From Legionella genomosp. 1 (GTDB lineage: Bacteria > Pseudomonadota > Gammaproteobacteria > Legionellales > Legionellaceae), in contig CAMDMN010000001.1 in the NCBI GenBank assembly GCA_945901965.1, forward strand, positions 1 through 39,898: 39,898 nt of DNA. The letters run 5' to 3'. Made by a program: the position numbers and the translations under genes. The stretch's first letter is position 1. Each line of letters starts with the position of its first letter. The notes beneath the pieces are model-generated. The model was not told where the DNA came from. It searched no databases and saw only the letters and a list, made by a program, of their open reading frames with translations. Shown piece by piece: positions 24,727-39,299 of this stretch.

Positions 24727-24815
24727 AACTCATTATATTAATTTTAAAAATATCGAGAAATATCTGTGGGTGATTTCTTAAATTATCAACAATCACCTTT
24801 TAATTTAATCTTATT

Positions 24816-25709: not shown

Positions 25710-25970
25710 TTAAGCATCCTGAAATGTTAAATCTAAAGCATCACACACCGTCATACATACCAACTGGAAGCTTCTCATTTCTAAAACCTGACTATCAGAA
25801 AACGTAACATTAAACTCTTCTTCCAATGATACAATTAAATTCATCTGCCCAATAGAATCCCATGACTGAATTGTTTCAGGAGAGGATAAAGGAGTTATTT
25901 CATTTAAATCAATCTCAAAAAGCCTCGAGATAATCTTTTTCACACAATCTTCTACTTGTTGCTTAATCAT
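25710..25970 (-). CDS. Acyl carrier protein (stand-alone)
   Basis: About 86 aa from ATG 25970, which forms an ATGATTAA overlap with the upstream stop. The phosphopantetheine-site context is QSWDSIGQMNLIVSLEEEF (a DS-L/I type motif). Confidence 0.8.
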   Translation of the reverse strand: MIKQQVEDCVKKIISRLFEIDLNEITPLSSPETIQSWDSIGQMNLIVSLEEEFNVTFSDSQVLEMRSFQLVCMTVCDALDLTFQDA

Positions 25971-27705
25971 AAATAAATTCCTTATTAACGTAATCACAAA
26001 AATTTGGTAATTTTAAATTTAAATCATAAGAATACTTTTTAACCCCATTATCAGTAATTAATAGGATAAAACCTAACTGTTCATATAGATTAGATACCGG
26101 AATATTCTTTACCGTTGGAATATATTCTCCATAGAGTATTTTTATACCTGATTTTTTTAGGTCACTAATAACTGACTCAAAAAAAGCAAATTCAATTTTT
26201 CTCCCCATAACTCGACAACTTAACAAAAATGTATCAATACTTGCGGATAACCCATTACTGTCAAATTTAATAATTAACAAACCAACCGTTCCGGCGTCTC
26301 CAAATCGATCAGATACATCTATTGCATAAACCCGACAATACTCTGAAGCAATAAATTTGCGCATTTCTGTTTCGGAGTAACGATAAGTTGTTAAGTTAAA
26401 CTGATTGGTTTTCTGTGTTAATTGAGAAAGACGAGCGACTTTAAAGAGAGGATCTATTCTTATAGATAATGATAGCTGCAAATAACGAAGATAATCATCC
26501 AAACTTTCAAATTCATTTTTTATTCTCATACGCTCATCTTCCAATTGATACATTTTTAATCTTTGCGCATCCTCTAGAGTTTGAACTAAGCCAAAAAAAC
26601 TATTAGCTAGTTTTCTTATAATTGCTGGATATTCATATAAATTACGTGGAACTTGAACTACATCGACCTCTGGAAGCATCTTTCTAATTAAATTAACTTC
26701 AAAATCACTATCATCAACAAATACAATACTATCTAAACCAATATTTAGGGTATTAGCCATATTGATTATATTTATATGTTTTTCCTCCCAATTAACCTTG
26801 CGAATACAAAGATCATTCTCACTTAGTCTCATAGTTTTATCTATTAAAAACAGTTCTTTGACATCTTCATCATTATTTTTACTACAAATTCCAACTAACA
26901 CTCCTCTTTTAATTAGAGCAGCAATAATTGTTTGAACATCTCGATATGGATAACCAATTGGAGTCTCATATTTTTCCAAAATACCTTCTACCCCATCTTC
27001 ACCAACAACTCCTGGCCAAAGTGTATTATCACAATCTAAAATTAGCATTTTTTTAATTTTTCCACGAAGAAATATCAATGGATGCTTAATTTGAGAAGTA
27101 AACACTTTCATCATATTAAGGGTATACAAAGCTTTATGTATGTAATAATTTTGTGGGCTTATTGCGCTGGATACTCCTATGCTTCCAATAATTCTATCTA
27201 TATTTACAATTTGTACATTTTTTCCAATACAAGATTCGAGTATAGAATTCATCGAGTCTACAATCAGATCAAAATTATCTGGTTGTACTTGATTATAGTT
27301 GAATGCCAAAGAAGAAAATCGGTTAAAAAGTACCAAAGGTACATTTTCTAAAATACGGAACAATAATTGTAGCTCAAGCTTACATTTATTCAAAAGCTCA
27401 TCTATTTCTTTATTTGATAAAAGATTAGCCATGTAACTTAGGCTAGGAATATAATTTGCTGCCTCCCAAAAAATAATAACAGCATCACTATCAGAGTATT
27501 TTTCTGCATCTTGAAGAATATTATCATAATCACCAATAATAACATCCGCTTTTATTCCCTCTATTCCTAATTGATATTCCAAAAGATCCTTTATTAAGTT
27601 AACAGTAATATTTGTAAGGACGACAATACGAAAAGGCAAACCACACAATTTTTTCTTCATTTCTCTATTTTGGATTACAATTTCAGAAAAAGATACTTCA
27701 CTCAT
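25963..27705 (-). CDS. FkbH-like HAD-IIIC phosphatase/acyl-loader with C-terminal GNAT-like domain
   Basis: 580 aa. HAD motif I plus the FkbH signature appear as LILDCDNTLWPGVVGEDGVEGI, together with GICSKNNDEDV. The C-terminal ~150 aa (FGDAGTVGLLI...LLSCRVMGRKIEFAFF) are acyltransferase-like, as in the FkbH-domain family. Confidence 0.8.
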   Translation of the reverse strand: MSEVSFSEIVIQNREMKKKLCGLPFRIVVLTNITVNLIKDLLEYQLGIEGIKADVIIGDYDNILQDAEKYSDSDAVIIFWEAANYIPSLSYMANLLSNKEIDELLNKCKLELQLLFRILENVPLVLFNRFSSLAFNYNQVQPDNFDLIVDSMNSILESCIGKNVQIVNIDRIIGSIGVSSAISPQNYYIHKALYTLNMMKVFTSQIKHPLIFLRGKIKKMLILDCDNTLWPGVVGEDGVEGILEKYETPIGYPYRDVQTIIAALIKRGVLVGICSKNNDEDVKELFLIDKTMRLSENDLCIRKVNWEEKHINIINMANTLNIGLDSIVFVDDSDFEVNLIRKMLPEVDVVQVPRNLYEYPAIIRKLANSFFGLVQTLEDAQRLKMYQLEDERMRIKNEFESLDDYLRYLQLSLSIRIDPLFKVARLSQLTQKTNQFNLTTYRYSETEMRKFIASEYCRVYAIDVSDRFGDAGTVGLLIIKFDSNGLSASIDTFLLSCRVMGRKIEFAFFESVISDLKKSGIKILYGEYIPTVKNIPVSNLYEQLGFILLITDNGVKKYSYDLNLKLPNFCDYVNKEFIYD

Positions 27706-28892
27706 ACCATAACTCCCCCGCCATTTACCCGCAAAGTCTCACCCGTAATAAAGTCAGAGTCAGAGCTCATTAAATAGGAAACCGCAGATGCTACATCACT
27801 AGGTTTACCCATACATTTTAATGGGGTTGAACTCTCTATTAATAAACGATTTTTCAATGGAATATCAGCGACTAAATTTGTATCGATCATACTTGGAGAA
27901 ACAAGATTAATTCTTACTCCATATGGAGCAATTTCAACAGCAACTGACTTAACATACCCTACTAGAGCAGACTTTGCGGCGATATAATGAGCCCATTTAG
28001 CCACAGGTTGATCTACAGCTTGTGTTGAAAGAACAACTATTTTCCCATATTTTTCATCAATAAACTTGGGAATGATATTGCTACTTATATTATAAAATCC
28101 CTTCAAATTAACTTCAATTTGGTCATTGATGTCATGCCATCTAAGCACACTAGAATTTAATGATGGAAGTTTAGGAGTAGGGCAAAACACAAACCCAATA
28201 ATATTTGGCATCCTTTTATTTACTTGCAAAATCATTTCTCTTACCGAATCTTCATTTGTTACATCAGCTTGAAATAAAAATACTTGGCTGGAATCAGATG
28301 CAATTTCAGAACGAAGTTTATGAGCCTGATCAGCATTTTTATTATAATGCACAGCAATATCAAAACCATCACCTGAGAGCCTTCTACAAATTTCTCTCCC
28401 TATCCCTCCAGTAGCACCTACTACAAGAACTGCTGGCTTTTTCTGTTTTTTACCAAGATCTACAGAATTTTTCTCAAGATCTTGTTCTTCAATCACCTTT
28501 ACTTTTGCATGACCACTGGTCAATAATTCATTGTGTTGATTAAATATGTTGGTTGTTAATTCAATTACTTCATCACGTAAATACTTTTTAATTACTTCTG
28601 CGCGAACTCTAAGAATATCACCAACTCGAGCTGGCTTTAAAAAATTTAATTGCTGTGACATCCAAAGAGAACCATCTCCAGGGAGCTTCGTACCAATTAT
28701 TGTAGAAATAAAAGAAGCACCTAACATTCCATGTGCTACAGGCATTTTAAAATATGTACGTGAAGCATACAACTTATCAACATGCAGACGATTGTCATCA
28801 CCCGTCAAAGTAACAAACCTCGAAATATCTTCATCAGTAATTTTATGACAGACCTCAGCAAAATCACCAACTTTAATTTCTGAAAATTTCAT
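27702..28892 (-). CDS. Bifunctional MaoC-like (R)-hydratase/dehydratase + short-chain dehydrogenase/ketoreductase fusion
   Basis: 396 aa. The N-terminal hot-dog domain carries the hydratase motif LTGDDNRLHVD. The C-terminal SDR has VVGATGGIGREI (TGxxxGIG) and YIAAKSAL (YxxxK). Confidence 0.85.
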   Translation of the reverse strand: MKFSEIKVGDFAEVCHKITDEDISRFVTLTGDDNRLHVDKLYASRTYFKMPVAHGMLGASFISTIIGTKLPGDGSLWMSQQLNFLKPARVGDILRVRAEVIKKYLRDEVIELTTNIFNQHNELLTSGHAKVKVIEEQDLEKNSVDLGKKQKKPAVLVVGATGGIGREICRRLSGDGFDIAVHYNKNADQAHKLRSEIASDSSQVFLFQADVTNEDSVREMILQVNKRMPNIIGFVFCPTPKLPSLNSSVLRWHDINDQIEVNLKGFYNISSNIIPKFIDEKYGKIVVLSTQAVDQPVAKWAHYIAAKSALVGYVKSVAVEIAPYGVRINLVSPSMIDTNLVADIPLKNRLLIESSTPLKCMGKPSDVASAVSYLMSSDSDFITGETLRVNGGGVMV

Positions 28893-28897
28893 TATCC

Positions 28898-29464
28898 TTA
28901 CAATTCCTTTTTCTGTAAACGTGACTTGACAACCCTACCAGGATTCCCCACTACAATTGAATAAGGAGGAATAGGACCACTCACTACTGATCCAGCTCCA
29001 ATCACTGACCCTGTACCAATATGTGCACCAGAAAGCAAAATGGCATTTGGGGCAATCCACACATGATCTTCAATTACAATACTATATAATTTATTATTAA
29101 AAATAATGGTTTTAAAATCATGTCCTTGTTCTATAAAAGGAAGATTTAAGTCATCAAAACGATGGTTAGCCGTTCTAACCCAAGCCCCTCGCGAAACCCA
29201 AACATGATTACCAATCCAAATCGGATAAGAATCTCCTGCAGCAATACTTGCAGATTCTCCTATCATAAAATTATCACCAACATTAATCATATTTTTAATC
29301 CCAATACTGGATCCACGCTCAAAAATAGCTTGTTTACCAATACGATCTTTCAATATATATTCCCAATATTTTCTCCGAAGCCATCTTCCTAATTGGGTTT
29401 CAGGATAATAAATAATAATAAAACTAATCCACTGCTTAATCTCAATAATGAATAATTTAAACAT
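28898..29464 (-). CDS. Hexapeptide-repeat (LbH) acyl/acetyltransferase
   Basis: 188 aa with hexapeptide repeats ending IAPNAILLSGAHIGTGSVIGAGSVVSGPIPPYSIVVGNPGRVV. It has a hydrophobic N-terminus. Confidence 0.8.
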   Translation of the reverse strand: MFKLFIIEIKQWISFIIIYYPETQLGRWLRRKYWEYILKDRIGKQAIFERGSSIGIKNMINVGDNFMIGESASIAAGDSYPIWIGNHVWVSRGAWVRTANHRFDDLNLPFIEQGHDFKTIIFNNKLYSIVIEDHVWIAPNAILLSGAHIGTGSVIGAGSVVSGPIPPYSIVVGNPGRVVKSRLQKKEL

Positions 29465-29606
29465 AAAGATCCTTGCCTATAAATGATAATTTATTACTGT
29501 TAATATAAATTTAAAAAATTAAAATCAATATTATGAGAGTTATAAAATTTATTTTTAAAAATAAATTAACTTTAACTAACTTTATAAGAGTTAAATTGAT
29601 TTGATT

Positions 29607-30233
29607 TTAATTAAAAATTATTTCCTCATTTGATTTTATCAATTTATTTTTTAAAACTTCAACACCAAACCTGTCAGACAAATTATGCAATATAAACTGG
29701 TGTCCAACTTCAACATAACCATAATCATAAGAGTCTAACCAAAAATTAAAATGTCCAATCTCCCTTAAAGAATTATTATTATCAAAGCCAGTAAAAGTAA
29801 CAACATTAACACCTCGTTCTATCGCTACTTCTACAGCATTACATATATTTTTAGATTTTCCGGAGCTACTAATTGCAATTAGCATATCACCTGATTTAAT
29901 AAATTGTGATAATACTCTAGAGTATGCATTCTCATAACCAAAATCATTTGCCATACAAGTAATCAGCGATGATTCGTGTAATACTTGCGCATTGATCTTT
30001 GCAACATTAACAAAATCAACTTGGGCATGACTTGCAACGGCCGCACTACCACCATTGCCAATAATATAAAGCGACTGTTTGTCTTGACGAATCTTTCGTA
30101 GATTGTCCAATACTTGTAACATTGCTAATTCAAGATTAACTATGTTCATTTCTTCATTTGTACAAACTGTATTGGTGATAATCTGAGCGAATTCAGTAGC
30201 GCGATGGTTAAGTTGCATTTTATTTAATTCCAT
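29607..30233 (-). CDS. SIS-domain sugar-phosphate isomerase, GmhA/DiaA-like
   Basis: 208 aa. IIGNGGSAAVASH and GDMLIAISSSGKSKNI match the phosphoheptose-isomerase-type SIS motifs. Confidence 0.8.
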   Translation of the reverse strand: MELNKMQLNHRATEFAQIITNTVCTNEEMNIVNLELAMLQVLDNLRKIRQDKQSLYIIGNGGSAAVASHAQVDFVNVAKINAQVLHESSLITCMANDFGYENAYSRVLSQFIKSGDMLIAISSSGKSKNICNAVEVAIERGVNVVTFTGFDNNNSLREIGHFNFWLDSYDYGYVEVGHQFILHNLSDRFGVEVLKNKLIKSNEEIIFN

Positions 30234-31162
30234 ATTAATTCTCCATTTTCTTTTATTTTTTCAAAATTTTTTATTACCATTAAACCCATTGCTTCAATAG
30301 CCTCTGAAGTACTACCACCTATGTGACTTGTTGCAAAAAAATTATCTAATGCAAGTAATTTTTCAGACACTTTCGGCTCTTCCTCAAATACATCTAAAGC
30401 TGCTGCTAAATATTTGCTTTTTAATACCTGATACAACGCCACTTCATCAACTAACCCCCCTCGAGCGGTATTAATTAGAATTGCCCCTTTTTTCATTGCG
30501 TTTAATTCATCAAACCCAATAAAATGATGGTTTTCTGGAAGTAATGGAATATGGAGTGAGATTATATCTGACTGTTCTAACAGTGTGTTAAGCTTCACCT
30601 GCTTTACATGTGTCATTAAATTATCATGGGTTTGAATATCATAAATTAAACATTTACAACCGAACCCTTGGAGTAATAAAGCCAAATCTTGGCCAACAGC
30701 ACCAAACCCAATAATACCAACAGTCTTATTTGAAAGTTGACTTCCAGTAGGTTGCTGCCATTGTCCTTTCTTAATCTTTTCATAAACTATATGTAAATGA
30801 CGCTGTATTGTAAAAATTAGACCTAAGACTAATTCTGATACTGAACGCTTATTCAATCCAGGAGTAGCTGCAAAACCTATACCACGACGCTCCAAAGCGT
30901 TAAGGTCAATCTTGTCTATACCAGTACCCATTTTACAAATTACTTTCAAATCTGGTAAATAGTCAAGAAGTTTATCATCAATGACTTCTAAGCCAATAAT
31001 TGCATGTGTCGCTCCATGCAAAAATTTAATTAATGCTTCATCAGCCAACTTAATTCCAGCATCATTAAATTTTACATTAGTAAATTTCTCTCGCAATCTT
31101 TGACGAAGGATATTATTTTTTGAAAATGAACGAGATGTAACTGCAACTAATTGTTTATTCAC
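30224..31162 (-). CDS. D-isomer-specific 2-hydroxyacid dehydrogenase (SerA/PdxB-like), NAD-binding
   Basis: 312 aa. Motifs are the NAD motif GIIGFGAVGQDLA, NTARGGLVDE, LDVFEEEP and TSHIGGST. It has a GTG start. Confidence 0.85.
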   Translation of the reverse strand: MNKQLVAVTSRSFSKNNILRQRLREKFTNVKFNDAGIKLADEALIKFLHGATHAIIGLEVIDDKLLDYLPDLKVICKMGTGIDKIDLNALERRGIGFAATPGLNKRSVSELVLGLIFTIQRHLHIVYEKIKKGQWQQPTGSQLSNKTVGIIGFGAVGQDLALLLQGFGCKCLIYDIQTHDNLMTHVKQVKLNTLLEQSDIISLHIPLLPENHHFIGFDELNAMKKGAILINTARGGLVDEVALYQVLKSKYLAAALDVFEEEPKVSEKLLALDNFFATSHIGGSTSEAIEAMGLMVIKNFEKIKENGELIWN

Positions 31163-31176
31163 AATAAAACATATCC

Positions 31177-31932
31177 TTATTCATGCTCAAAAAAATTACT
31201 TATTTTCTCAATGTGAGAACCTGCAGAAGCATAATCAATATACCAAGATATATCTCTACTTGGTTTAAGTAGTTGAATAGGATATTCAAACTCACCTAAA
31301 TTACTAAATACAGATTTAACCACATGAGCTTTAGATTCACCTGCAACAAGAACGGCTACTAATATTGCAGAATTTATTGCTTGCAAAGTTAAACTAATAC
31401 GACGCGATTGTAAATGTTTAACATCGATATTTACGACTATATTATTAGAATTTAATGACTCCTTATCGTCAGGAAATAATGAGGCAATATGACCGTCTAC
31501 TCCAACCCCCAATAACACAAAATCAAATTGTGGAAGGCCTTTTTCATTTTTAGGTAAATTTGAATTTAGCTTATTTTCATAAAGAATAGCTGATTCATGC
31601 GGAGTAATATCTTCCGTTTTTATACGATGGATATTTGCAACATTAAGTGAGACGTGACTCAGAAATCGAGAACTAATCATATTAAAGTTATTATCTATAT
31701 GAGATTCTGGCACAAATCGTTCGTCAGTTTGATAAATATGTACAAATTGCCAATCGATTTGATCAACATAAGGTTTGTTAGCTAAAAGAGAATAAAATAA
31801 CTGTGGCGTGTTTCCTCCAGATAGAGCAACATGAAAACTACCAGAATTACTAATATTAAATTTTGCCTGATTAACAAATTGTTGTGCAAGCATATGACTA
31901 AGTTGCTCTAAATTTTTTTTAACATATTGCAT
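31177..31932 (-). CDS. 6-phosphogluconolactonase-family protein (Pgl/DevB/NagB fold)
   Basis: 251 aa. ALSGGNTPQLFY, YQTDERFVP and LLGVGVDGHIASLFP match Pgl signatures. Confidence 0.8.
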   Translation of the reverse strand: MQYVKKNLEQLSHMLAQQFVNQAKFNISNSGSFHVALSGGNTPQLFYSLLANKPYVDQIDWQFVHIYQTDERFVPESHIDNNFNMISSRFLSHVSLNVANIHRIKTEDITPHESAILYENKLNSNLPKNEKGLPQFDFVLLGVGVDGHIASLFPDDKESLNSNNIVVNIDVKHLQSRRISLTLQAINSAILVAVLVAGESKAHVVKSVFSNLGEFEYPIQLLKPSRDISWYIDYASAGSHIEKISNFFEHE

Positions 31933-31975
31933 GCAATCATTCCAATATTATTAACCAATTGAAATTAAAAAACAT

Positions 31976-33115
31976 CTAAACCAACATATTAGATTTGGTA
32001 AAAGCAATTTTTTCTTGAGATTTAATAGCCCTCCCACTTAATAAATAAAGTCGACATAGATCTTTAAATAGCTGATCATTAGCAATATTTGCTTTAGAAA
32101 TTAAGCTATGTTGATTAAGTAAAATTAAACTCAACACATCATTACCTGTATTTTTTTTATCCTTAGAGATTGCTCGTAGGAATGCATCTAACGGAATAAA
32201 TTCCTGAGCATAATCAATATAATTTTGGGCTAATACTGCATGCATTCTAATATAATGTTCAGATGTTGTTAAATTAGTTTCCATAGCAATATAATTCGCC
32301 ATATCCATACCAATCGTTACTGCAATTCCATGAGGAATCTTATACTCTGTGGCTGACTCAATTGCATGACCAAAGCTATGGCCATAATTCATCACCTGCC
32401 GTATATCTCTATCAAATTCATCTTGTTCTATAATCTCTTTCTTAATTTCTAATGACCGACGAATATAATACGTCATCAATTCATTATTTTCGAAAAGACC
32501 ATCATAATCTTTTGATATTTGATTAAATGATTTCTCGCCGTCAATTGCATGTACCTTTAACATTTCACCAATTCCAGATCTAATAGCCTGAATATCTAAT
32601 GTCTTGAGAAATTCTAAATAAATAAAAATCTGCTTGGGTGGAGTAAAAGTTCCCAATATATTTTTAGCATCCCCACAATTTATAGAACTTTTAGAACCGA
32701 TGCAAGAATCTGCCTGAGCAAGAAGTGTAGTCGGGACAAAATACCATTCTACCCCGCGCAACATATTAGCAGCTAAAAAACAGGTAATATCTTGAATAAT
32801 ACCACCGCCAATCGCGATTAATTGCTGATTGCGCCGAAGCTTATTTTTTACTAAATGTTCAACATAAGCTGGCATTTTCTCTAGAGATTTATTTTTTTCA
32901 TCCGCTTCAATTGTTAAAACAGATATGGCAGATGTCAATATCTCTTTAAGTTGGTCGTGATAAAGAGTAAATATATTTTTATCTATTATGATATGGCTTT
33001 GATGAATGATTTCCTTATCAAGTTGAAATTTATTTCCCTCCATAAAACTTACACTATACCTTCCCTTATGAGATTGAACTTCAAATGAATAATTAGACAC
33101 GGGTAAATCCTCCAT
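31976..33115 (-). CDS. 3-dehydroquinate synthase-family sugar-phosphate cyclase (divergent AroB paralog)
   Basis: GGGIIQDITCFLAANMLRGVEWYFVPTTLLAQADSCIGSKSSIN, AKNILG, SGIGEMLK, RQVMNYGHSFGHAIE, HGIAV and SKDKK align motif by motif with AroB. The start is ambiguous between GTG 33136 and ATG 33115, and both overlap the upstream SDR stop. Confidence 0.85.
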   Translation of the reverse strand: MEDLPVSNYSFEVQSHKGRYSVSFMEGNKFQLDKEIIHQSHIIIDKNIFTLYHDQLKEILTSAISVLTIEADEKNKSLEKMPAYVEHLVKNKLRRNQQLIAIGGGIIQDITCFLAANMLRGVEWYFVPTTLLAQADSCIGSKSSINCGDAKNILGTFTPPKQIFIYLEFLKTLDIQAIRSGIGEMLKVHAIDGEKSFNQISKDYDGLFENNELMTYYIRRSLEIKKEIIEQDEFDRDIRQVMNYGHSFGHAIESATEYKIPHGIAVTIGMDMANYIAMETNLTTSEHYIRMHAVLAQNYIDYAQEFIPLDAFLRAISKDKKNTGNDVLSLILLNQHSLISKANIANDQLFKDLCRLYLLSGRAIKSQEKIAFTKSNMLV

Positions 33116-33812
33116 CAACAGCAATATTTTGCCCACTTAAATAAGTATTTTCTTCACTCACTAACCATAAAACAAATCTAGCAATCTCATCAGGCTGACC
33201 TAATCTACCAATTGGAATTTGCTGCACGATTTCAAGTATTTTATCTTCGCCTAAAATCTGTTTGGTCAAGTCAGTTTCAATAAATCCAGGCGCTACACAA
33301 TTAGCTAAAATTCCATATGAAGCTACTTCAGCAGCCAATGCAGCTGTCATACCATCTAACGCAAATTTACTAGCAGAATAAGGTGCACGCCAAGATTTAC
33401 TCACTTTACCTAAAACAGAACTCAAGTTTACTATTCTTCCCCATGCCTTTTTACGCATCCCAGGAATCACTGATCTACACAAAATAAATGGAGCGTTAAG
33501 ATTTACTCGTTGTATATTATTAAAATTTTCTAAGGTTGTGTTTTGAAAGGGAGCTATAATATTAATTCCTGCGTTGTTAATCAAAATATCTGGTTCTAAT
33601 TCAGCAAGTATTTCCGCAAATTTCTCCGTGCTTTTTTCACACAGAAAATTAACCGAATAATATTGAAAATCATCAGAAATTGTAGTCTTTTCACTTGTTC
33701 CAGTAATTAACACTTGTGCGCCAGCAAATTTAAGTTGCTGAGCTATAGCAAGCCCAATTCCTCTATTAGCTCCCGTTACAACAGCCATTTTACCATTTAA
33801 CTCAATTGTCAT
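33093..33812 (-). CDS. Short-chain dehydrogenase/reductase (FabG-like)
   Basis: 239 aa with VVTGANRGIGLAIA, NNAGI and YSASKFAL (YxxxK). Confidence 0.9.
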   Translation of the reverse strand: MTIELNGKMAVVTGANRGIGLAIAQQLKFAGAQVLITGTSEKTTISDDFQYYSVNFLCEKSTEKFAEILAELEPDILINNAGINIIAPFQNTTLENFNNIQRVNLNAPFILCRSVIPGMRKKAWGRIVNLSSVLGKVSKSWRAPYSASKFALDGMTAALAAEVASYGILANCVAPGFIETDLTKQILGEDKILEIVQQIPIGRLGQPDEIARFVLWLVSEENTYLSGQNIAVDGGFTRV

Positions 33813-33845
33813 TTAATGCTACTTCTTCTGTTATTTATTTGTAGA

Positions 33846-34916
33846 TCAGTCAATAAGTTCAAAATTTAATTTTTTGCTTTTAGATTTAGCTTTTAAAGAC
33901 CAACGGTCACTCCATGCTAGATCTGCATAGTATATTTGATACACAAGCGACATAGTATTATAAGCATCTTCTAAAGTGCCATGCTTGATCTCAGCTTTAC
34001 CTAAAATTGCATCAGCAAATTCTGCAATTTCATATTTCCAAGAATTATCTTCATTATAACGAGTAGTTTGTTCTTTAGGGTCACCACAGTCGTCTTGGGT
34101 TGCCCAAGCGATAGTCATTTTTTCAGAGCCATAACTTTTTGAACCTGAAAGAATTCCACTTAGAGTAATAGCCCCCTTTTCTAAACTAATATCTAACTGA
34201 AATTGATGACGCCATTGAGTTGCTGAAGAATGCAACATCGCCACAATTTTATTTTTAGTACGCATCAGTGCATATGCATTATCTTCAACATCATGTTTCC
34301 AAAAATCATTCGAAATAAAACTATGAACTTCACTAAACTCTCCACCAAATAAGCGTAAGAGATCAACCATATGAATTCCTTGATCAAGCAATATTCCTCC
34401 ACCTGCTATAGCACGCTGACTTCGCCAATCAGAATTTTGACCAAAATTAATTATTTTTGATTTACCATACACCCCACGCAAATTAATTACATCACCTAAT
34501 TCCTTGGAATTAATTATACTTAGAGCCGCTGAAACGGAATCATGATATCGATGATTAAATCCATATTTTAACTTAAGATGTGGATGTTTTTTCTTACAGG
34601 CGACTACCAGATCCATATCAGATAAATCACGTCCAGGTGGCTTTTCACAAAAAACATGCAACCCTCTTTCTAACCCCGCAACAGTAACTTCTGCAGCAAT
34701 ATCATTTGTCAAACACACGAAAAGAATATCTAAATCTTGAGCCAGCAACTCTTTATAATTAGAAAAATAAGGGACACCGCTATCCATTTTACCACTGCTC
34801 ATAAAATGTCGGTCACAAATAGCAACTACTTTTAAATTAGCATGCAAATCGATATGAAAATGACGACGCTTTCCAACAACACCATACCCTGCAATACCAA
34901 CCCTTAATTTTTCCAT
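33846..34916 (-). CDS. Gfo/Idh/MocA-family NAD(P)-dependent sugar oxidoreductase
   Basis: 356 aa with N-terminal VGIAGYGVVGKRRH, the EKP motif VFCEKPPG and GFNHRYH. It is the first gene of the long minus-strand operon as currently arranged. Confidence 0.9.
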   Translation of the reverse strand: MEKLRVGIAGYGVVGKRRHFHIDLHANLKVVAICDRHFMSSGKMDSGVPYFSNYKELLAQDLDILFVCLTNDIAAEVTVAGLERGLHVFCEKPPGRDLSDMDLVVACKKKHPHLKLKYGFNHRYHDSVSAALSIINSKELGDVINLRGVYGKSKIINFGQNSDWRSQRAIAGGGILLDQGIHMVDLLRLFGGEFSEVHSFISNDFWKHDVEDNAYALMRTKNKIVAMLHSSATQWRHQFQLDISLEKGAITLSGILSGSKSYGSEKMTIAWATQDDCGDPKEQTTRYNEDNSWKYEIAEFADAILGKAEIKHGTLEDAYNTMSLVYQIYYADLAWSDRWSLKAKSKSKKLNFELID

Positions 34917-34966
34917 AAAACATCCTAATTTATAAAAAATACAGTTATTTTTTTAGTAAGCCCTAA

Positions 34967-35117
34967 ACAATAAATATTGGTGCATATGCCCTTCAACTTT
35001 TTCAATGTCATTTGGACTATCAACAGAAAATGAATGTCGATAAGGATATGGCGCTATGGGCTGTTTTAATCCATGATCCATTATACAATTACTGTCACAA
35101 CGTTCTTTTAATTCTAA
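34967..35117 (+). pseudogene. IS3-family transposase (OrfB) C-terminal remnant, part 1 (interrupted by IS5-like insertion)
   Basis: The plus-strand frame reads ...MNVDKDMALWAVLIHDPLYNYCHNVLLIL. It continues in frame with 36289-36437 once the IS and one CTAA copy are removed. It is 5'-truncated near 34960. Confidence 0.6.
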
Positions 35118-35259
35118 CACCTCGTTACTAATTTGTAACGGATAAATTTTTCATTTTTAAGCTTTCTATTTTTTTATCGGATATACCAGAGTCAACTTTT
35201 TAGCTCATTAATTTTTTTGACTGTTGTCACAAAATTAGATCATCTAACGCATCCTGTAA

Positions 35260-36177
35260 CAACGCCCCCCTTGGCTAACTATTTGTGCCAATTTATCAAT
35301 GAGGCATGTGGTGTTGTAGGTGGATATGGCGGTTTACAAAAGCGCCTTATAATTAATAAGGGTATAAACCATCAGCTTCATCCCGAAATGCTGTGTGCTT
35401 GATCCACAAAAATAGTCGCTTGAATTCGTCATCCAAGGAGAACACGCGCACTATTGTTCTTAACTGATCTTCGAATATGGCCTTATCAAAAAACCGGTTT
35501 CTGCCTCGCTTTTTAGCATTTCTATTACTCTTGTTTTCATTGATATTTGGCGCCATACCCACATTGAAAATCATTTTTTCTATTTTTTTAGAGTCATATG
35601 CCCCATCCAGACTTATAAATGAACGTAAAACATCCATACTAACGGCTTTTGCAATATCTTTAAGTTTGTTAAATGCGCCTGGAAATAGTTTGGTCTCATT
35701 CGCATTGTCAGGTCCGGTAACAATGGGGGCAACGACATTACAGTTCCTATCACACAACGCGACTATTTTATCTCCTGTCAGATGATTGTGGTCGCTTTTG
35801 CCAATATTATCGCAACTTTTTTTGCAGAGGTTATTGTGCTGTTCCCGTGAAGAACGCTGGTGTCTAAAAGAGACTCCCTCTCTAACTTTGCAACCGATGA
35901 TTCAAAAACTCGGTCAAAAAACCGCTGTTAACCCAGTTTTGGAAGTGTCTAAATAATCGAGAGTAACTTATCTCGGTCCTTCAAAATGGATCTTTATCTA
36001 TAGTGAGTTTATACCACTGGCATCCCGCGCGCATTAAGATCAAAAAATAATCAAGCATCTTAAAATATGAGATTTTTGGTTGTGGTCCTTGGCAACCTCC
36101 CTTTATGTGCGCAAAAACAAATTAATTAAAGCCAGACTAGGATAATTCAGTGGGTTCCAGCTGTAGCACGTCTTCAT
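35260..36177 (-). pseudogene. IS4/IS5-type DDE transposase, multiply frameshifted and stop-interrupted
   Basis: Minus-strand fragments appear in three frames: LDEDVLQLEPTEL, GGCQGPQPKISYFKMLDYFLILMRAGCQWYKL, the 134-aa ORF 35353-35757 (DGAYDSKK...NRNAKKRGRNRFFDKAIFEDQLRTIVRVF...FKRL) and a YKALL tail. The order matches IS5-family transposases. Confidence 0.7.
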
Positions 36178-36191
36178 CCAGGAGATTCCCC

Positions 36192-36284
36192 AATTTCTAT
36201 TAATTGTGTACCGCGAGCATGATACACCAGAAAACCCTTACCTACACTGAATTTAAAGGAAATTAGAAACTAGCAACGAGGTGA
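36192..36284. repeat. 93-bp IS5-like transposase-proximal end, copy 1
   Basis: My ungapped alignment to 39517-39609 gives 82/93 identical positions. Both copies end in ...AGAAACTAGCAA[C/G]GAGGTGA. Confidence 0.88.
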
Positions 36285-36288
36285 CTAA

Positions 36289-36437
36289 AAGTTGAATTAA
36301 TTCATGAATGTGCTTATAAAACACCTGAGCAAGCAAGTCTTAGCATATTTCAATACCTGGAAGTATATTATAATAATAATTGAATGCATTCAGCTATTGA
36401 CTATAATACTATATTTGAGTTCAAATGTGCTGGGTGA
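36289..36437 (+). pseudogene. IS3-family transposase (OrfB) C-terminal remnant, part 2
   Basis: The frame reads (K)VELIHECAYKTPEQASLSIFQYLEVYYNNN*MHSAIDYNTIFEFKCAG*. This matches the IS3-family tail pattern Y-x-T-x-E-x-A-x-x-x-I-F-x-Y-I-E-x-x-Y-N-x-x-R-x-H-S-x-x-x-Y-x-x-P-x-x-F-E. There is one internal TGA where Arg is expected. Confidence 0.7.
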
Positions 36438-36692
36438 TTGTCAAAGATCGGTATCCACTAAAACACGTAAGATTATCATGATACACCAGAATCTGCAGCT
36501 CGAAATGTTACGAATATTTGGTAAGGTTTAAGTCTCAGTATTGTAATTTATCAGATGAATTACTTGGCCGAGTTGAATCCACGTTAAGTGATGTCGTTTC
36601 TGAAAGAAAGTACAAGATGAAACTTTCATTAACTTATTGATGCTGATTAAGTTAAATTAAATATAAGTTATGATTTTTATGGAGAGATTGGC

Positions 36693-37691
36693 ATGAGAGA
36701 AGTGGACATTAGACCAGAAAATATTTTTAGTGAATACTTACGCTTAACTCAAATAGATGCGGAGACATTTTTCACAAACTCAGAATGTGTTGATATAGAT
36801 TGTCCAGCTTGCGCTGCCCTTGATAAAAAGTACGCTTTCACGAAACAAGGGTTTGATTATCAAGTCTGTCAAAACTGTGAAACACTGTATCAATCACCAC
36901 GCCCTCTTAAAGTTTTATTTGATAATTTTTATTTTGACTCACCATCATCAACTTTCTGGGGAGAGCAATTTTTTCCTGCTGTTTCTGAAATTAGACGTGA
37001 AAAAATATTTAAGCCTCGATGTGAAGCAATCATCAATAAATGCCAAAAATGGGATTTTGAGCCAAAAACAGTAATAGATGTAGGTGCTGGATTTGGTGTT
37101 CTTCTCGAAGAAATGCAAAAACTGGCTCCAACTGCAGAGTATTTGGCTATCGAGCCCGGACATATTTTATCCAAAGTGTGCATGGATAAAGGCTTCGATA
37201 CACTTATATCAACAGTTGAGGAAGCTCATGAATGGCATGACAAAGCTGACTTACTTACATGTTTTGAAGTAATTGAACATACCTATAACCCATTAGAGTT
37301 TGTCGCGGCTTTAAAAAACATCCTGAAGCCAGGTAAAAAAGTATTAGTGACCGGCTTGTGTGGTGATGGATTTGATATAAAAATATTATGGGAACATTCA
37401 AAAAATATTTCACCCCCTCATCACATAAATTTTATGTCGGTAGAAGGATTTAAATTACTTTTTGAAAGAGCAGGATTTGTTAATGTTAGTGTTGAAACGC
37501 CTGGAAAATTAGATGTGGATATAGTTCTTAACGCATTGAATGATGAGAGTATAAGAAAAAATCTAAACTTAAGTAGACTTGAATCTCATTTGGTAGCGCA
37601 ATTCAAGGATAATCCACATACGTTACAACAATTTCTTGCTGACAACCAATTGAGTTCACATTGCTGGATCTGGGCTGAGAGACCATTGTAA
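36693..37691 (+). CDS. Class I SAM-dependent methyltransferase with N-terminal Cys4 zinc-ribbon
   Basis: 332 aa. The zinc-ribbon cysteines are CPACAAL...CQNCETLY, SAM motif I is VIDVGAGFGVLLEEM, and CFEVIEHTYNP follows. A GGAGAG Shine-Dalgarno lies about 8 nt upstream of the ATG. Confidence 0.8.
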   Translation: MREVDIRPENIFSEYLRLTQIDAETFFTNSECVDIDCPACAALDKKYAFTKQGFDYQVCQNCETLYQSPRPLKVLFDNFYFDSPSSTFWGEQFFPAVSEIRREKIFKPRCEAIINKCQKWDFEPKTVIDVGAGFGVLLEEMQKLAPTAEYLAIEPGHILSKVCMDKGFDTLISTVEEAHEWHDKADLLTCFEVIEHTYNPLEFVAALKNILKPGKKVLVTGLCGDGFDIKILWEHSKNISPPHHINFMSVEGFKLLFERAGFVNVSVETPGKLDVDIVLNALNDESIRKNLNLSRLESHLVAQFKDNPHTLQQFLADNQLSSHCWIWAERPL

Positions 37692-37713
37692 TTTTAAAAA
37701 GAGAGTTAAACTA

Positions 37714-38487
37714 ATGAGACAATTTACCCTAAAACAAAAACTACAAACTGGGAAATTAACCTTAGGGGCTTGGATAACATTGGGACATACTGCCATTGCG
37801 GAAATTTTTGCTCAGGCAGGTTTCGATTGGGTGGTTGTTGACCTTGAGCACAGTACTATCTCTATCGAGAAAGCAGGTGATTTGATCAGAGTCATTGACC
37901 TTGCGGGTGTTCCTGCATTAGTGCGGCTGACATCAAACGATGATTGTCTCATCAAACGAGTGATGGATGCTGGTGCCTATGGTATTGTGGTGCCGATGAT
38001 CAACTCATCTGAGGAAGCTGTTAAAGCAGTAATGGCAACACGTTACGCTCCTCACGGAACGCGTGGTGTTGGATTGGCACGAGCACAAGGATATGGACGA
38101 AATTTTAAAGATTACCTTGAGTGGCAGGAAGATTGCCCACTGGTTATTGTGCAGATAGAGCATGTTAGTGCTCTTAATAATTTAGAAGCAATATTTAGCG
38201 TTGATGGTGTTGATGGGTTTATTATTGGACCATATGATTTGTCCTGCTCTATGGGGATACCTGGTCAATTTGATCACCCTGATTTTATAAGTGCTATGGA
38301 GTCCATTAAAACCACGGGAGAACGAATGGGGTGTCCTGCTGGTATTCACATTGTGGAACCAAGTCCACAGCAGTTAGAACAAAATATTGCTGCAGGGTAT
38401 CAATTTATCGCATATAGCGTTGATATTCGTATGCTAGATGTTAGCGCGCTTAATGGTATTAGTGTGTTTAAGGAGCTTAATAAATGA
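37714..38487 (+). CDS. HpcH/HpaI-family class II (metal-dependent, pyruvate-specific) aldolase
   Basis: 257 aa. AGFDWVVVDLEHS, VRL, RVMDAGAYGIVVPMINSSEEA, YAPHGTRG, VQIEHVSALNNLEAI, VDGFIIGPYDLSCSMG and HPDF parallel the HpcH/GarL/RhmA family. Confidence 0.88.
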   Translation: MRQFTLKQKLQTGKLTLGAWITLGHTAIAEIFAQAGFDWVVVDLEHSTISIEKAGDLIRVIDLAGVPALVRLTSNDDCLIKRVMDAGAYGIVVPMINSSEEAVKAVMATRYAPHGTRGVGLARAQGYGRNFKDYLEWQEDCPLVIVQIEHVSALNNLEAIFSVDGVDGFIIGPYDLSCSMGIPGQFDHPDFISAMESIKTTGERMGCPAGIHIVEPSPQQLEQNIAAGYQFIAYSVDIRMLDVSALNGISVFKELNK

Positions 38488-39263: not shown

Positions 39264-39299
39264 AGTTTGGTAATAAATGTTATTTTGGAATAAAACCGA

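Follow-up and report, generated by a model that had tools for sequence, protein, structure and literature searches.

Among the relatives of 3-dehydroquinate synthase (DHQS), NCBIfam lists a family of unknown function, TIGR04425, under the name 'AroB-related putative sugar phosphate phospholyase (cyclizing)'. KdsB-type cytidylyltransferases form another family that bears on the present locus, and all of their known substrates are, to our knowledge, 2-ulosonic acids. Proteins of the LIC12162 and TIGR04326 families accompany neuABC elsewhere (PMC6679464). We analysed a stretch of 39,898 nucleotides from Legionella genomosp. 1 (contig CAMDMN010000001.1, hereafter the window), an O-antigen-type locus in which a TIGR04425 gene stands in a cassette with five others. 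An earlier note on this DNA had not recognised the gene set. Indeed, no paper describing the pathway was found in the literature, but NCBIfam already lists the hypothetical family; the set is uncharacterised rather than unrecognised.

Organization and enzymes of the cassette

The six ORFs were confirmed at 29607-34916 on the minus strand of the window, where they come first in a minus-strand polysaccharide gene array of roughly 30 kb. In order, they encode a Gfo/Idh/MocA NAD(P) oxidoreductase (Gfo, 33846-34916), a FabG-like classical SDR (33093-33812), a DHQS paralog of the TIGR04425 family (31976-33136), which is the signature enzyme of the module, a 6-phosphogluconolactonase-class (Pgl-class) protein (31177-31932), a D-isomer 2-hydroxyacid dehydrogenase of the phosphoglycerate dehydrogenase (PGDH) type (HADH, 30224-31162) and a SIS sugar-phosphate isomerase that resembles GmhA and whose catalytic tetrad is altered (29607-30233). 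The successive junctions measure +33, -44 (or -23), +43, +14 and -10 nt. The SDR gene extends at its 3' end past the start of the DHQS paralog; this start is probably at 33115, since the database protein has 379 aa. ORFs, strand and junctions all agreed with the tight co-oriented packing that the earlier note had described, and profile-HMM comparison upheld each of its six family calls (Pfam E-values from 1e-15 to 1e-62).

The Gfo protein (PF01408, PF22725 and PF02894) shows EKP and D-x-x-x-H motifs. Its PDB matches were at family level only, and the nearest named NCBIfam models, inositol 2-dehydrogenase and levoglucosan dehydrogenase, were both far under cutoff. We propose that it acts as a sugar-phosphate C1 (or ring-hydroxyl) dehydrogenase. 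The SDR (adh_short_C2, 1e-49) reached no NCBIfam equivalog cutoff and is proposed to reduce the ketone remaining after the DHQS-type reaction. In the HADH (2-Hacid_dh_C, 1e-53), the motifs TARG, FEEEP and SHIGG of an Arg/Glu/His catalytic triad can be recognised. Its best models, PGDH, glyoxylate/hydroxypyruvate reductase and PdxB, all stayed short of cutoff; the best PDB match was P. horikoshii PGDH (1.7e-52), and a probable 2-ketogluconate reductase was matched at 9e-34. The proposed role is that of an aldonate-phosphate C2 dehydrogenase yielding a 2-keto acid.

The SIS protein (SIS_2, 2.6e-15) missed the cutoff of the gmhA model TIGR00441 (76.7 bits; cutoff 209). Every PDB match was a phosphoheptose isomerase, and the GNGGS motif, the S-x-S-G-x-S phosphate loop and H61 of E. 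coli GmhA are kept, so that its description as GmhA-like was sound. In the catalytic tetrad, however, E65 is replaced by D in 18/18 members and Q172 by E in 17/18, while H180 is kept in 15/18. As the catalytic Glu and Gln have become Asp and Glu, the substrate of the isomerase may not be sedoheptulose-7-P.

The DHQS paralog

The DHQS paralog scored 470 bits against TIGR04425 (cutoff 400) and only 273 bits against the aroB model TIGR01357, under its cutoff of 305. These scores indicate a dedicated paralog and not a housekeeping aroB, as had been suspected. The best PDB matches were bona fide DHQS (1.9e-47), far above the carboxylate-free cyclases DOIS (3.6e-28), EEVS ValA (8.8e-26) and DDGS (9.4e-21). 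All 13 DHQS catalytic or substrate-binding residues that were checked are identical to those of E. coli AroB. Among 71 family members, R127, D143, K149, N159, E191, K232, R246, N250, H253, H257, H269 and K327 are invariant and K194 is kept in 96%; the two carboxylate binders, counterparts of A. nidulans K250 and R264, are retained. The family also has invariant polar residues of its own (Q115, S148, E237, Y251, D278, N281 and N305), which adjoin conserved active-site residues. Since both carboxylate and phosphate binders are kept, the residue pattern favours a DAHP-like 2-ulosonate 7-phosphate as substrate, in line with the compound put forward in the earlier note.

The cytidylyltransferase segment

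No activating enzyme had been seen in the cassette itself. One is present 3.6 kb upstream, on the opposite strand: a KdsB/KpsU-type CMP-ulosonate cytidylyltransferase (38484-39263, plus strand; CTP_transf_3, 2.2e-42). It passed the KdsB subfamily model NF009905 (277 bits; cutoff 255), missed the kdsB equivalog TIGR00466 (152.8 bits; cutoff 155.2) and had as best PDB match the E. coli capsule CMP-Kdo synthetase 1gq9 (2.2e-39). Its start overlaps by 4 nt the stop of a gene for an HpcH/HpaI class II pyruvate aldolase (HpcH, 37714-38487, plus strand; PF03328, 1.4e-35). HpcH missed the HpaI, GarL and RhmA equivalog cutoffs, and its best PDB match was YfaU, a 2-keto-3-deoxy sugar aldolase (1.5e-42). 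Next to it lies MT2 (36693-37691, plus strand; Methyltransf_23, 3e-20), a SAM methyltransferase that carries a Cys4 zinc ribbon at its N terminus, and directly upstream of MT2 is a frameshifted C-terminal remnant of a putative transferase of the LIC12162 family (PF27859; 36438-36640, plus strand). With the LIC12162-family protein of locus L043, the closest relative, as tblastn query, the remnant gave 70% identity over 47 aa and a second piece; in translation, its last ~60 codons are divided between two frames. The whole segment is flanked by 93-nt direct repeats (36192-36284 and 39517-39609, plus strand) that are 88% identical; their 29-nt core is present at exactly two places in the window and at none in shuffles.

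In L043 the genes run in one direction as LIC12162-MT2-HpcH-cytidylyltransferase...Gfo-SDR-DHQS-HADH-SIS-Pgl. The LIC12162-family gene preceding MT2 is intact there, and cassette, HpcH, methyltransferase and cytidylyltransferase form one operon. Identity between window and L043 is 91% for MT2, 91% for HpcH and 96% for the cytidylyltransferase. We conclude that these three genes belong to the module of the cassette and reached the opposite strand through local rearrangement.

Distribution of the module

The neighbourhood search suggested in the earlier note showed the same families clustering with the DHQS paralog in 36 non-redundant loci, which span Proteobacteria, Nitrospirota, Acidobacteriota, Gemmatimonadota, Chloroflexota, Bacteroidota, Actinomycetota and CPR bacteria. 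Because 7 of the 36 are short contigs, partner counts are lower bounds: at least 35 loci for the SDR, 30 for Gfo, 28 for the KdsB-type cytidylyltransferase, 26 for HADH, 17 for SIS and 12 for HpcH. Such recurrence across phyla means that the arrangement is not due to chance. Among the partners, Gfo is conserved best, with 59-66% identity between phyla, and the SDR gene adjoins or overlaps the DHQS paralog in 35/36 loci. In 28/36 loci, a KdsB-like gene or CTP_transf_3-cupin fusion is found no more than 10 kb from the paralog, often in the same translationally coupled operon; in the eight-gene operons of L020 and L048, with overlapping stops and starts, it stands between SIS and SDR. HpcH adjoins the cytidylyltransferase in most of its 12 loci and shares none of the 36 with a second-Gfo/HisC-like pair, and in other loci MT2 was found only where HpcH is present (9/36).

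The Pgl-class protein exceeded the pgl model TIGR01198 (183 bits; cutoff 124), and NCBIfam would name it 6-phosphogluconolactonase. The lactonase assignment thus held at the level of family but not of core membership, since only 3/36 other loci have a Pgl gene at 10 kb or less from the cassette. Its four forms (window, L043, L005 and L048) share ~30% identity with one another and stand at different positions. We regard the protein as a lineage-specific accessory, with a proposed role as sugar-acid-phosphate lactonase; the core consists of Gfo, SDR, DHQS paralog, HADH and SIS, to which the lactonase is added in this window.

Several loci carry further genes. The L034 cassette contains genes for a transaldolase/FSA, a HAD phosphatase and an FGGY kinase, and in L048 the cassette is part of a flagellar locus that also encodes a Maf-like protein. 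Genes of DUF386/YhcH, which we take to be a sialic-acid-associated family, occur in four cassette variants. Within 21 kb in L043, there is no NeuB gene and the sole CTP_transf_3 gene is that of the cassette, and genes of the LIC12162 and TIGR04326 families are both there.

Proposed pathway and alternatives

Our preferred but tentative reading is that the module would yield an acidic, sugar-like building block, activated with CMP, for surface and flagellar glycans, via C7 sugar phosphates and a probable carbocycle. The analysis establishes the gene families, the intact catalytic residues, the status of the DHQS protein as a paralog and a conserved synteny to which the cytidylyltransferase belongs; every substrate, the order of steps, ring closure and the aldolase's partner for pyruvate are those that we infer. 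The GmhA-like protein would convert sedoheptulose-7-P to an aldoheptose-7-P, which Gfo would oxidise at C1 to a lactone, opened by the Pgl-class enzyme or, at other loci, spontaneously or by a housekeeping lactonase. HADH would then oxidise C2, and the hept-2-ulosonate 7-phosphate so formed would be a DAHP analogue bearing a further hydroxyl group. On this compound the DHQS paralog would carry out NAD+-dependent oxidation, phosphate elimination and re-reduction, and the product would probably ring-close, as with DAHP, to a dehydroquinate-like carbocycle whose ketone the translationally coupled SDR would reduce. In this subtype, pyruvate aldolase and methyltransferase would then elaborate the product, and the KdsB-type enzyme would activate it with CMP. 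The seven-carbon route is supported by the exclusive match of SIS to GmhA structures, by its phosphate loop and by the transaldolase/FSA, HAD phosphatase and FGGY kinase genes of L034, the lactone step by the recurrence of four mutually divergent Pgl-class genes near the cassette, and the 2-keto-acid step by the closeness of HADH to enzymes for phosphorylated aldonic acids. Recurring lactonases and the transaldolase variant also fit the zwf-like oxidation of a seven-carbon sugar phosphate envisaged earlier. The sedoheptulose-7-P scheme of that note remains plausible, but it left out the aldolase, methyltransferase and CMP steps.

Some observations sit less easily with the scheme. HADH is missing from 10/36 loci and SIS from 19/36, seven loci being short contigs. 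The nearest named relatives of Gfo oxidise ring hydroxyls of inositols and glycosides, which speaks against C1 oxidation; the pyruvate aldolase has no obvious aldehyde acceptor; and the proposed ulosonate is, by stereochemical reasoning, presumably epimeric to DAHP at C4. As to the carbocycle, a saturated tertiary carbocyclic alcohol esterified with CMP cannot, by known chemistry, serve as glycosyl donor. The transferase families neighbouring the cassette are those seen with CMP-ulosonic acids, and CMP activation together with LIC12162, TIGR04326 and Maf-type transferases argues for a transferred unit in which a true anomeric centre is required; DUF386/YhcH genes would likewise point to true ulosonic acids.

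These features make a 7-deoxy-hept-2-ulosonic acid that bears no carbocycle a serious rival, which we consider somewhat less likely than ring closure. Such a compound would be a smaller counterpart of 9-deoxy nonulosonic acids. The early steps would be unchanged and the DHQS paralog would be an NAD+-dependent phosphate eliminase only, acting on the aldonate 7-phosphate before C2 oxidation, or followed by interception of a 6-keto/enol intermediate by the SDR. The KdsB-type enzyme, found inside the operon and with the cassette in 28/36 loci, would then activate a true anomeric centre for transfer by LIC12162, TIGR04326 or Maf-type enzymes. The substrates of its family, the gene content of L043, the flagellar locus with its Maf-like protein and the four DUF386/YhcH variants all fit, and an obligate SDR partner (35/36) is expected if a reactive keto intermediate needs trapping. 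An isomer of the carbocycle, this product therefore fits the entire sequence evidence just as well. It is disfavoured in that the full DHQS active site is conserved, the DHQS enol-pyranose intermediate cyclises spontaneously given a C2 ketone, no member of the DHQS family is known to us to halt at a deoxy compound, and both Gfo paralogs are most like inositol dehydrogenases, which fits cyclitol chemistry.

It is improbable that HpcH provides the entry step by joining pyruvate to erythrose-4-P (or another aldose phosphate) to give a DAHP stereoisomer, which the DHQS paralog would cyclise and the SDR reduce to a quinate-like acid, with Gfo, HADH and methyltransferase as tailoring enzymes. HpcH is a class II pyruvate aldolase nearest to 2-keto-3-deoxy-sugar-acid aldolases, belongs to the module at 12 loci and would suit the DAHP-type site of the paralog, but the 24/36 loci without it still have Gfo, HADH and cytidylyltransferase. 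Its mutual exclusion with the second-Gfo/HisC-like pair suggests alternative late tailoring rather than entry, and its coupling to the cytidylyltransferase resembles that of NeuB to NeuA. SIS, Pgl and transaldolase would be unexplained, and HADH would be left without a substrate because quinate-type alpha-hydroxy acids are tertiary. Slightly less probable still is a non-sugar acid that forms no glycosyl unit and serves as N- or O-acyl substituent on a CDP-derived 3-amino-3,6-dideoxyhexose encoded downstream. A CDP-glucose module (cytidylyltransferase, 4,6-dehydratase, FdtA-like protein, DegT and GT2) does follow the cassette in the window and in L043, L003, L007, L012, L017 and L019, RfbF is present in 10/36 loci and RfbG in 12/36, and acyl-handling genes for a hexapeptide acyltransferase, MaoC-SDR and FkbH lie immediately downstream in the window. 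However, the CDP-hexose module is missing at many loci, the cassette has no conserved ligase or adenylating partner, and the activating enzyme that is conserved is of the KdsB type, not known to us to activate carboxylates. A chance grouping of housekeeping aroB, pgl, serA or pdxB, gmhA and fabG beside an O-antigen locus is effectively refuted by synteny. It would accord with the NCBIfam name of the Pgl-like protein and with the KdsB subfamily score, but the aroB, gmhA, PGDH and FabG equivalog cutoffs were each missed, the combination repeats in 36 loci of many phyla, often translationally coupled, and it is found in loci for O-antigen or flagellar glycosylation.

The six genes form the core of a widespread module, centred on a copy of an enzyme of the shikimate pathway, whose most likely product is an unusual CMP-activated, seven-carbon-derived acid, either ring-closed or 7-deoxy. 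The O-antigen-type locus of the window, the flagellar locus of L048 with its Maf-like protein, and the LIC12162 and TIGR04326 neighbours support use in glycans, and the product of the module most likely serves surface and flagellar glycans.

Gene content and organization of the cassette

The window (G+C content ~32%) is dominated by one long minus-strand polysaccharide array, whose first six genes form the cassette. In 5' to 3' gene order, these minus-strand genes encode a Gfo/Idh/MocA oxidoreductase (Gfo, 33846-34916), an SDR (33093-33812), a dehydroquinate synthase (DHQS)-like protein (31976-33136, with a likely ATG at 33115), a Pgl-like protein (31177-31932), a D-2-hydroxyacid dehydrogenase (HADH, 30224-31162) and a SIS protein (29607-30233). 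The earlier note had described six tightly packed ORFs, and this packing was borne out; all its family calls were confirmed by Pfam, with E-values from 1e-15 to 1e-62. The successive junctions measure +33, -44 (or -23 when the ATG at 33115 is used), +43, +14 and -10 nt. A scan of positions 25500-39898 revealed no convincing terminator inside the cassette, and promoter-like sites in the same region were not in excess (66 versus a shuffle expectation of 66.9).

Three further genes are carried by the plus strand, the first beginning 1.8 kb upstream of Gfo. They encode a zinc-ribbon SAM methyltransferase (MT2, 36693-37691), an HpcH/HpaI class II pyruvate aldolase (HpcH, 37714-38487; PF03328, 123 bits for a cutoff of 25) and a KdsB/KpsU-type cytidylyltransferase (38484-39263; CTP_transf_3, and NF009905 with 277 bits for a cutoff of 255). 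The coordinates of the cassette should be widened to take in 36693-39263.

Directly after the SIS gene, a minus-strand block (23674-29464) encodes a hexapeptide acyltransferase, a MaoC-dehydratase/SDR fusion, an FkbH-domain protein, a SAM methyltransferase and a sulfotransferase-like protein, and its genes look suited to building an acyl, glyceryl or sulfate substituent. The FkbH-domain protein has no Pfam match; it was recognized by the NCBIfam FkbH model (260 bits), and a homologue is present in L030 (handles of this form denote loci with a DHQS paralog in other genomes). A CDP-glucose module follows on the minus strand (18129-23658), with genes for a glucose-1-P cytidylyltransferase, a CDP-glucose 4,6-dehydratase, an FdtA-like cupin, a DegT aminotransferase and a GT2. 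Such a module also lies just downstream of the cassette in L043, L003, L007, L012, L017 and L019, over several distant lineages, and this suggests that the products of cassette and module are used together in one glycan. The window also contains two Wzx-like flippase genes (7678-8967 and 13675-14931), an FnlA/B/C-like set for the L-FucNAc route (10380-13644) and an FdtA/FdtC/DegT-like set (14928-16874). Since these are more sugar pathways than one simple repeat unit usually requires, the locus may be composite.

A conserved module that includes a cytidylyltransferase

Species-representative genomes were searched with the DHQS paralog and the corresponding contigs looked up, giving 36 non-redundant loci with a family member of at least 40% identity. 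They span Alpha-, Beta- and Gammaproteobacteria, Nitrospirota, Acidobacteriota, Gemmatimonadota, Chloroflexota, Bacteroidota, Cloacimonadota, Actinomycetota and CPR bacteria. Magnetospirillum moscoviense BB-1, Paramagnetospirillum caucaseum, Hyphobacterium sp. HN65 and Joostella sp. CR20 are carriers available in culture. Partner genes were counted within 10 kb, and the counts are lower bounds, seven loci being short contigs. An SDR gene, nearly always overlapping the DHQS gene, was present in 35 of the 36 loci, followed by Gfo (30), a KdsB-like cytidylyltransferase or a CTP_transf_3-cupin fusion (28), HADH (26), SIS (17), the HpcH aldolase (12) and MT2 (9). A second Gfo gene occurred in eight loci, six of which also had a HisC-like aminotransferase, and a Pgl-class gene in three. 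A neighbourhood search of this kind had been proposed in the earlier note, and the cassette families do recur together in other loci. Synteny effectively rules out a chance cluster of housekeeping genes.

The same note had seen no activating enzyme. This point was overturned, both by the KdsB-type gene of the window and by its counterparts in 28 of 36 loci. In the operons of L020 and L048, where stop and start codons overlap, this gene is flanked by SIS and SDR. This position, together with its frequency, indicates that the cytidylyltransferase is an integral and conserved member of the module. The window protein narrowly misses the kdsB equivalog TIGR00466 (152.8 bits, cutoff 155.2). Its embedding in cassettes, including that of L014, a MAG labelled Actinomycetes, argues against a housekeeping role in LPS synthesis.

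HpcH and the second Gfo were never found in one locus (0 of 36), and they look like alternative late tailoring modules. Identity to the window cytidylyltransferase is mostly 41-95% in loci with HpcH (about 35% in three with a divergent HpcH) and 30-37% in loci with a second Gfo. This split, combined with the mutual exclusion of the two genes, suggests at least two product subtypes. In L018, L021, L023, L026, L031 and L034 (Nitrospirota, SAR86, Bacteroidota and Cloacimonadota), a fusion of ~400 aa, with CTP_transf_3 followed by a C-terminal cupin, takes the place of the KdsB-like gene. DUF386/YhcH genes were detected in four variants, three with this fusion (L018, L021 and L031) and L048. One further architecture, a 580-aa protein with HAD-family and DHQS domains (P0101), is apparently a HAD-DHQS fusion.

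In L048/L049 (1-16581), the gene order is Gfo-SIS-cytidylyltransferase-SDR-DHQS-HADH-methyltransferase. The cassette is located immediately downstream of flgM-flgN-flgK-flagellin-csrA-fliW and PseB/PseC-like genes, and is followed by genes for a GT2, a GT61 and a Maf/MptE-like protein. No NeuB gene was found within 10 kb of it. Its product may be a component of a flagellin glycan.

Rearrangement of the window copy

The closest relative of the window locus, L043, is a 47.9-kb metagenomic contig that carries the genes as one co-directional operon. It encodes, in order, a protein of the putative transferase family LIC12162 (PF27859), the methyltransferase, HpcH, the cytidylyltransferase, an unknown 493-aa protein, a protein of a second putative transferase family (TIGR04326), DegT, Gfo, SDR, DHQS, HADH, SIS and Pgl, and then the CDP-glucose module. 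Identity to the window proteins reaches 91-96% for the methyltransferase, HpcH and the cytidylyltransferase, 84% for Gfo and 68-72% for SDR, DHQS, HADH and SIS; the Pgl protein is only 30% identical to that of the window and its gene occupies a different position.

Relative to L043, the MT2-HpcH-cytidylyltransferase segment of the window is inverted. Two copies of a 93-nt direct repeat, 88% identical, lie on either side of it (36192-36284 and 39517-39609), and the C-terminal remnant of the LIC12162 gene, broken by a frameshift, precedes MT2 (36438-36640, plus strand). The interval between Gfo and MT2 (34917-36692) is ORF-poor debris. A 134-aa ORF located there (35353-35757) had no Pfam match; inspection by eye suggested a resemblance to the C-terminal DDE region of an IS5-like transposase. 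Genes for the 493-aa protein, the TIGR04326 protein and DegT are missing from the window. We conclude that its copy of the module has been rearranged and has lost what was presumably its dedicated transferase. The nine biosynthetic ORFs are all intact.

The DHQS paralog retains the DHQS active site

The proposal that the DHQS-like gene is not a housekeeping aroB was supported by profile searches. The protein passes TIGR04425 (470 bits, cutoff 400, model positions 1-345 of 348) and falls below the aroB equivalog TIGR01357 (273 bits, cutoff 305). TIGR04425 is a hypothetical equivalog named 'AroB-related putative sugar phosphate phospholyase (cyclizing)', a name that NCBI also gives to the homologues. 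The module is thus already flagged in databases as a hypothetical family. Searches at E <= 1e-20 and E <= 1e-60 gave 7610 and 5045 proteins, respectively, both totals including ordinary AroB-type proteins. No shikimate (aro) genes were found beside the paralog in the window or in the 36 related loci.

When the PDB was searched by phmmer, true DHQS was the best match (1.9e-47), before DOIS (3.6e-28), EEVS ValA (8.8e-26) and DDGS (9.4e-21), which at the level of sequence comparison places the paralog unambiguously within DHQS. It shares with DOIS, EEVS and DDGS the use of a DHQS-superfamily enzyme on a sugar phosphate, possibly one derived from sedoheptulose-7-P, but it is far closer to true DHQS and its loci are glycan loci, not antibiotic or sunscreen clusters.

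The alignment comprised 71 family members, E. coli AroB and seven relatives at 26-31% identity that are presumably canonical AroB. The paralog is ~29% identical to E. coli AroB and 40-72% identical to members of its own family. It keeps 13 DHQS residues (R127, D143, K149, N159, E191, K194, K232, R246, N250, H253, H257, H269 and K327), which correspond to R120, D136, K142, N152, E184, K187, K226, R240, N244, H247, H251, H264 and K323 of E. coli AroB. We take the equivalent metal, phosphate, carboxylate and catalytic set of the A. nidulans enzyme to be R130, D146, K152, N162, E194, K197, K250, R264, N268, H271, H275, H287 and K356. Among the 71 members, 12 of the 13 residues are invariant and K194 is found in 96%. 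K232 and R246 are the counterparts of the A. nidulans carboxylate binders K250 and R264. This Lys/Arg pair is kept in the paralog, whereas DOIS, EEVS and DDGS need neither residue, as judged from their carboxylate-free substrates rather than from a residue comparison.

The paralog thus has the Pfam domains, the fold family and the 13 checked residues of AroB, and on this basis it would probably perform the same chemistry, namely NAD+-dependent oxidation, beta-elimination of phosphate and re-reduction on a 2-ulosonate 7-phosphate. It differs from AroB by an SDR partner, by its setting in glycan loci with a cytidylyltransferase and by invariant polar residues of its own beside the DHQS site (Q115, S148, E237, Y251, D278, N281 and N305). 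Read most simply, these alignments suggest that the enzyme performs DHQS chemistry and that its substrate is a 2-ulosonate 7-phosphate resembling DAHP but probably with more hydroxyls.

A proposed route from a seven-carbon sugar phosphate

The lactonase is the only one of the other five cassette proteins with a specific equivalog match (pgl TIGR01198, 183 bits, cutoff 124). The Pgl copy of L043, at its unrelated position, also passes this model (159.5 bits, cutoff 124). Pgl-class genes by the cassette take four forms, ~30% identical to one another (window, L043, L005 and L048), as if a lactonase had been recruited repeatedly. HADH is nearest to phosphoglycerate dehydrogenase, PdxB and hydroxypyruvate or 2-ketogluconate reductases, a position that puts it in the branch handling phosphorylated aldonic acids. 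Gfo is nearest, at the family level only, to inositol, levoglucosan and glycoside 3-dehydrogenases and aldose 1-dehydrogenases. SIS matched only GmhA structures in the PDB, and it does not reach the gmhA equivalog TIGR00441 (76.7 bits, cutoff 209). The phosphate loop is kept, as are two residues of what we take to be the catalytic and metal tetrad of E. coli GmhA (H61, E65, Q172 and H180): H61 and H180 are retained, and E65 is replaced by D and Q172 by E, consistently over 18 cassette SIS proteins. HpcH falls short of the named equivalogs (HpaI, 188 for a cutoff of 369; GarL and RhmA likewise), and shows a candidate catalytic Arg (LVRL) and candidate acidic metal ligands (QIEH and GPYD), picked out in the sequence itself rather than from a reference alignment.

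It had been proposed that a ketose phosphate, for instance sedoheptulose-7-P, is isomerized to the aldose phosphate, oxidized to the lactone, opened to the aldonate phosphate, oxidized to the 2-ulosonate phosphate, cyclized by the DHQS paralog and finally reduced by the SDR. The gene content favours the seven-carbon, zwf-like part of this scheme: the isomerase is GmhA-like, the DHQS site requires a C7 2-keto acid 7-phosphate, lactonases seem to have been recruited more than once, and HADH belongs with enzymes of phosphorylated aldonic acids. The interleaving of a small transaldolase/FSA gene, a HAD phosphatase gene and an FGGY sugar kinase gene with the cassette of L034 (Cloacimonadota, 7841-12479) points the same way. 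A free sugar phosphate, probably C7, would thus be converted to the lactone phosphate, the aldonate phosphate and the 2-keto-aldonate phosphate, with HADH running the C2 step in the oxidative direction, and the phosphate would be removed by the DHQS-type lyase instead of a phosphatase. The scheme fully uses the minimal conserved set of Gfo, HADH, DHQS, SDR and cytidylyltransferase, and organisms lacking the SIS gene could draw on a housekeeping GmhA. The earlier proposal is partly supported: its C7 phosphate and lactone logic is favoured; the CMP step was overlooked, and it complicates the carbocyclic ending.

Possible ring closure and CMP activation

Every KdsB/NeuA-family enzyme known to us acts on a 2-ulosonic acid, at its anomeric hydroxyl, and we know of no chemistry by which the CMP ester of a saturated tertiary cyclohexanol could serve for glycosyl donation. 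That a carbocycle can undergo nucleotidyl activation is known from GDP-valienol (validamycin and acarbose biosynthesis), but the donor ability of this compound comes from allylic activation, which a saturated tertiary CMP ester would not have. The cassette also keeps sialic-acid-like company: LIC12162, TIGR04326, Maf/MptE-like and DUF386/YhcH proteins occur nearby, and NeuB genes are found near the cassette in 7 of the 36 loci. In Herbaspirillum, genes of the LIC12162 and TIGR04326 families follow neuABC (PMC6679464). In L043, the cytidylyltransferase of the cassette is the sole one within 21 kb and NeuB is absent, so that the transferases of this locus presumably use the cassette's own CMP product. 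Both the neighbours and the KdsB-type activation would be readily accommodated if the ring did not close and the product were a 7-deoxy-heptulosonic acid, an isomer of the carbocycle and no less consistent with the sequence data. Against such a non-cyclized ending, which we regard as only slightly less likely than ring closure, the DHQS site is fully conserved and the Gfo paralogs are inositol-dehydrogenase-like. The enol-pyranose intermediate of DHQS cyclizes spontaneously, and this, with the conserved site and the nature of the Gfo paralogs, puts ring closure slightly ahead.

There are two other ways to resolve this. In loci with HpcH, pyruvate may be added after ring closure, creating a new ulosonic centre on a carbocyclic core; alternatively, CMP may have some other role. 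Taken together, the data make it very probable that the module is dedicated to the synthesis of a CMP-activated, C7-derived acid destined for glycans. For the full scheme as initially proposed, including ring closure, our confidence stays somewhat short of even. More tentative still is the idea of a new CMP-activated, monosaccharide-like class whose skeleton is forged by the DHQS paralog: a carbocyclic acid of the carba-ulosonic, hydroxyquinate type or, in loci with HpcH such as the window, a C10 ulosonic acid carrying or fused to that carbocycle, which would be placed on O-antigens and flagellins of many environmental and host-associated bacteria by sialyltransferase-like machinery.

Relation to known pathways

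Full-text literature searches found no paper on the cassette, and its members fall outside AroB, GmhA and the KdsA/NeuB-dependent clusters, in agreement with the earlier note, which did not recognize a characterized pathway in this gene set. The module borrows DHQS chemistry, Zwf/Pgl-type oxidation, KguD-type formation of a 2-keto-aldonate, KdsB-type activation and a context of nonulosonic acid type.

The CMP-Kdo pathway (KdsD, KdsA, KdsC and KdsB) is similar in its SIS enzyme acting on a ketose phosphate, its 2-keto acid phosphate, the loss of phosphate and CMP transfer by a KdsB-family enzyme. It differs in that the keto acid of the cassette would be formed by oxidation at C1 and C2, or else by a class II pyruvate aldolase, and in that SIS is GmhA-like, not KdsD-like. 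No Pfam match to NeuB or to a DAHP/KDO8P-synthase (the PEP-dependent KdsA/NeuB type) was obtained among window ORFs of at least 100 aa; the window shares a CTP_transf_3 gene with the CMP-ulosonic acid clusters (Kdo, Neu, Pse and Leg), and has the HpcH aldolase instead of the PEP-dependent synthase. Nonulosonic acid clusters (Neu, Pse and Leg) also produce a CMP-activated acidic sugar, in O-antigen and flagellin loci with LIC12162, TIGR04326 and Maf-type proteins, but they start from nucleotide-linked HexNAc and use NeuA/PseF/LegF-like cytidylyltransferases, whereas the cassette would start from free sugar phosphates, without a NeuB-type condensation of its own, and has a KdsB-like enzyme. The Zwf-Pgl steps of the oxidative pentose phosphate pathway, followed by a KguD-type 2-keto-6-phosphogluconate reductase, match the proposed sequence, except that the dehydrogenase is Gfo/Idh/MocA instead of Zwf, the substrate is probably C7 and the C2 step would be oxidative.

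Caryose and bradyrhizose are carbocycle-containing O-antigen constituents, as the cassette product would be. A paper on bradyrhizose (PMC4743980) reports that its biosynthetic genes were not known, describes a candidate 11-gene cluster with a dTDP-glucose 4,6-dehydratase and nowhere mentions a dehydroquinate synthase; a mapping of the cassette onto bradyrhizose biosynthesis was rejected on these grounds.

Two orphan CMP species of Magnetospirillum gryphiswaldense, CMP-203.0794 and CMP-217.0950 (named by residue mass), show neither DMB labelling nor CO2 loss and lack an alpha-keto acid (SugarBase preprint, bioRxiv 10.64898/2026.04.20.719630, SI Excel 6). Their formulas correspond to amino-hydroxyquinate with one and two methyls, respectively, but HexNAc and methyl-HexNAc are isobaric with them. 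A HisC-like aminotransferase and three methyltransferases are encoded in the Magnetospirillum cassettes L008 and L011 (from M. moscoviense and Magnetospirillum sp. LM-5); no M. gryphiswaldense homologue was present among the 120 best matches to the M. moscoviense protein. We regard these CMP species only as a tentative lead.

Significance

The module is very probably a CMP-activated sugar-acid pathway, and it could well lead to a class of monosaccharide that is new. Through the cassette, the recruitment of AroB, a primary-metabolism enzyme, into glycan biosynthesis without loss of its active site can be put to a direct test, and the labels aroB, pgl, serA, gmhA and kdsB that pipelines give to these genes may mislead metabolic reconstruction. 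If the proposed pathway is correct, it would be a third route to CMP-activated acidic sugars, beside those of KdsA and NeuB, leading from a free heptose phosphate by shikimate-type chemistry. Because the family is large, spread over many phyla and found in O-antigen and flagellin glycosylation loci, the product would then be common but so far unseen on bacterial surfaces, with a bearing on serotyping, phage receptors, immune recognition and glycomics databases.
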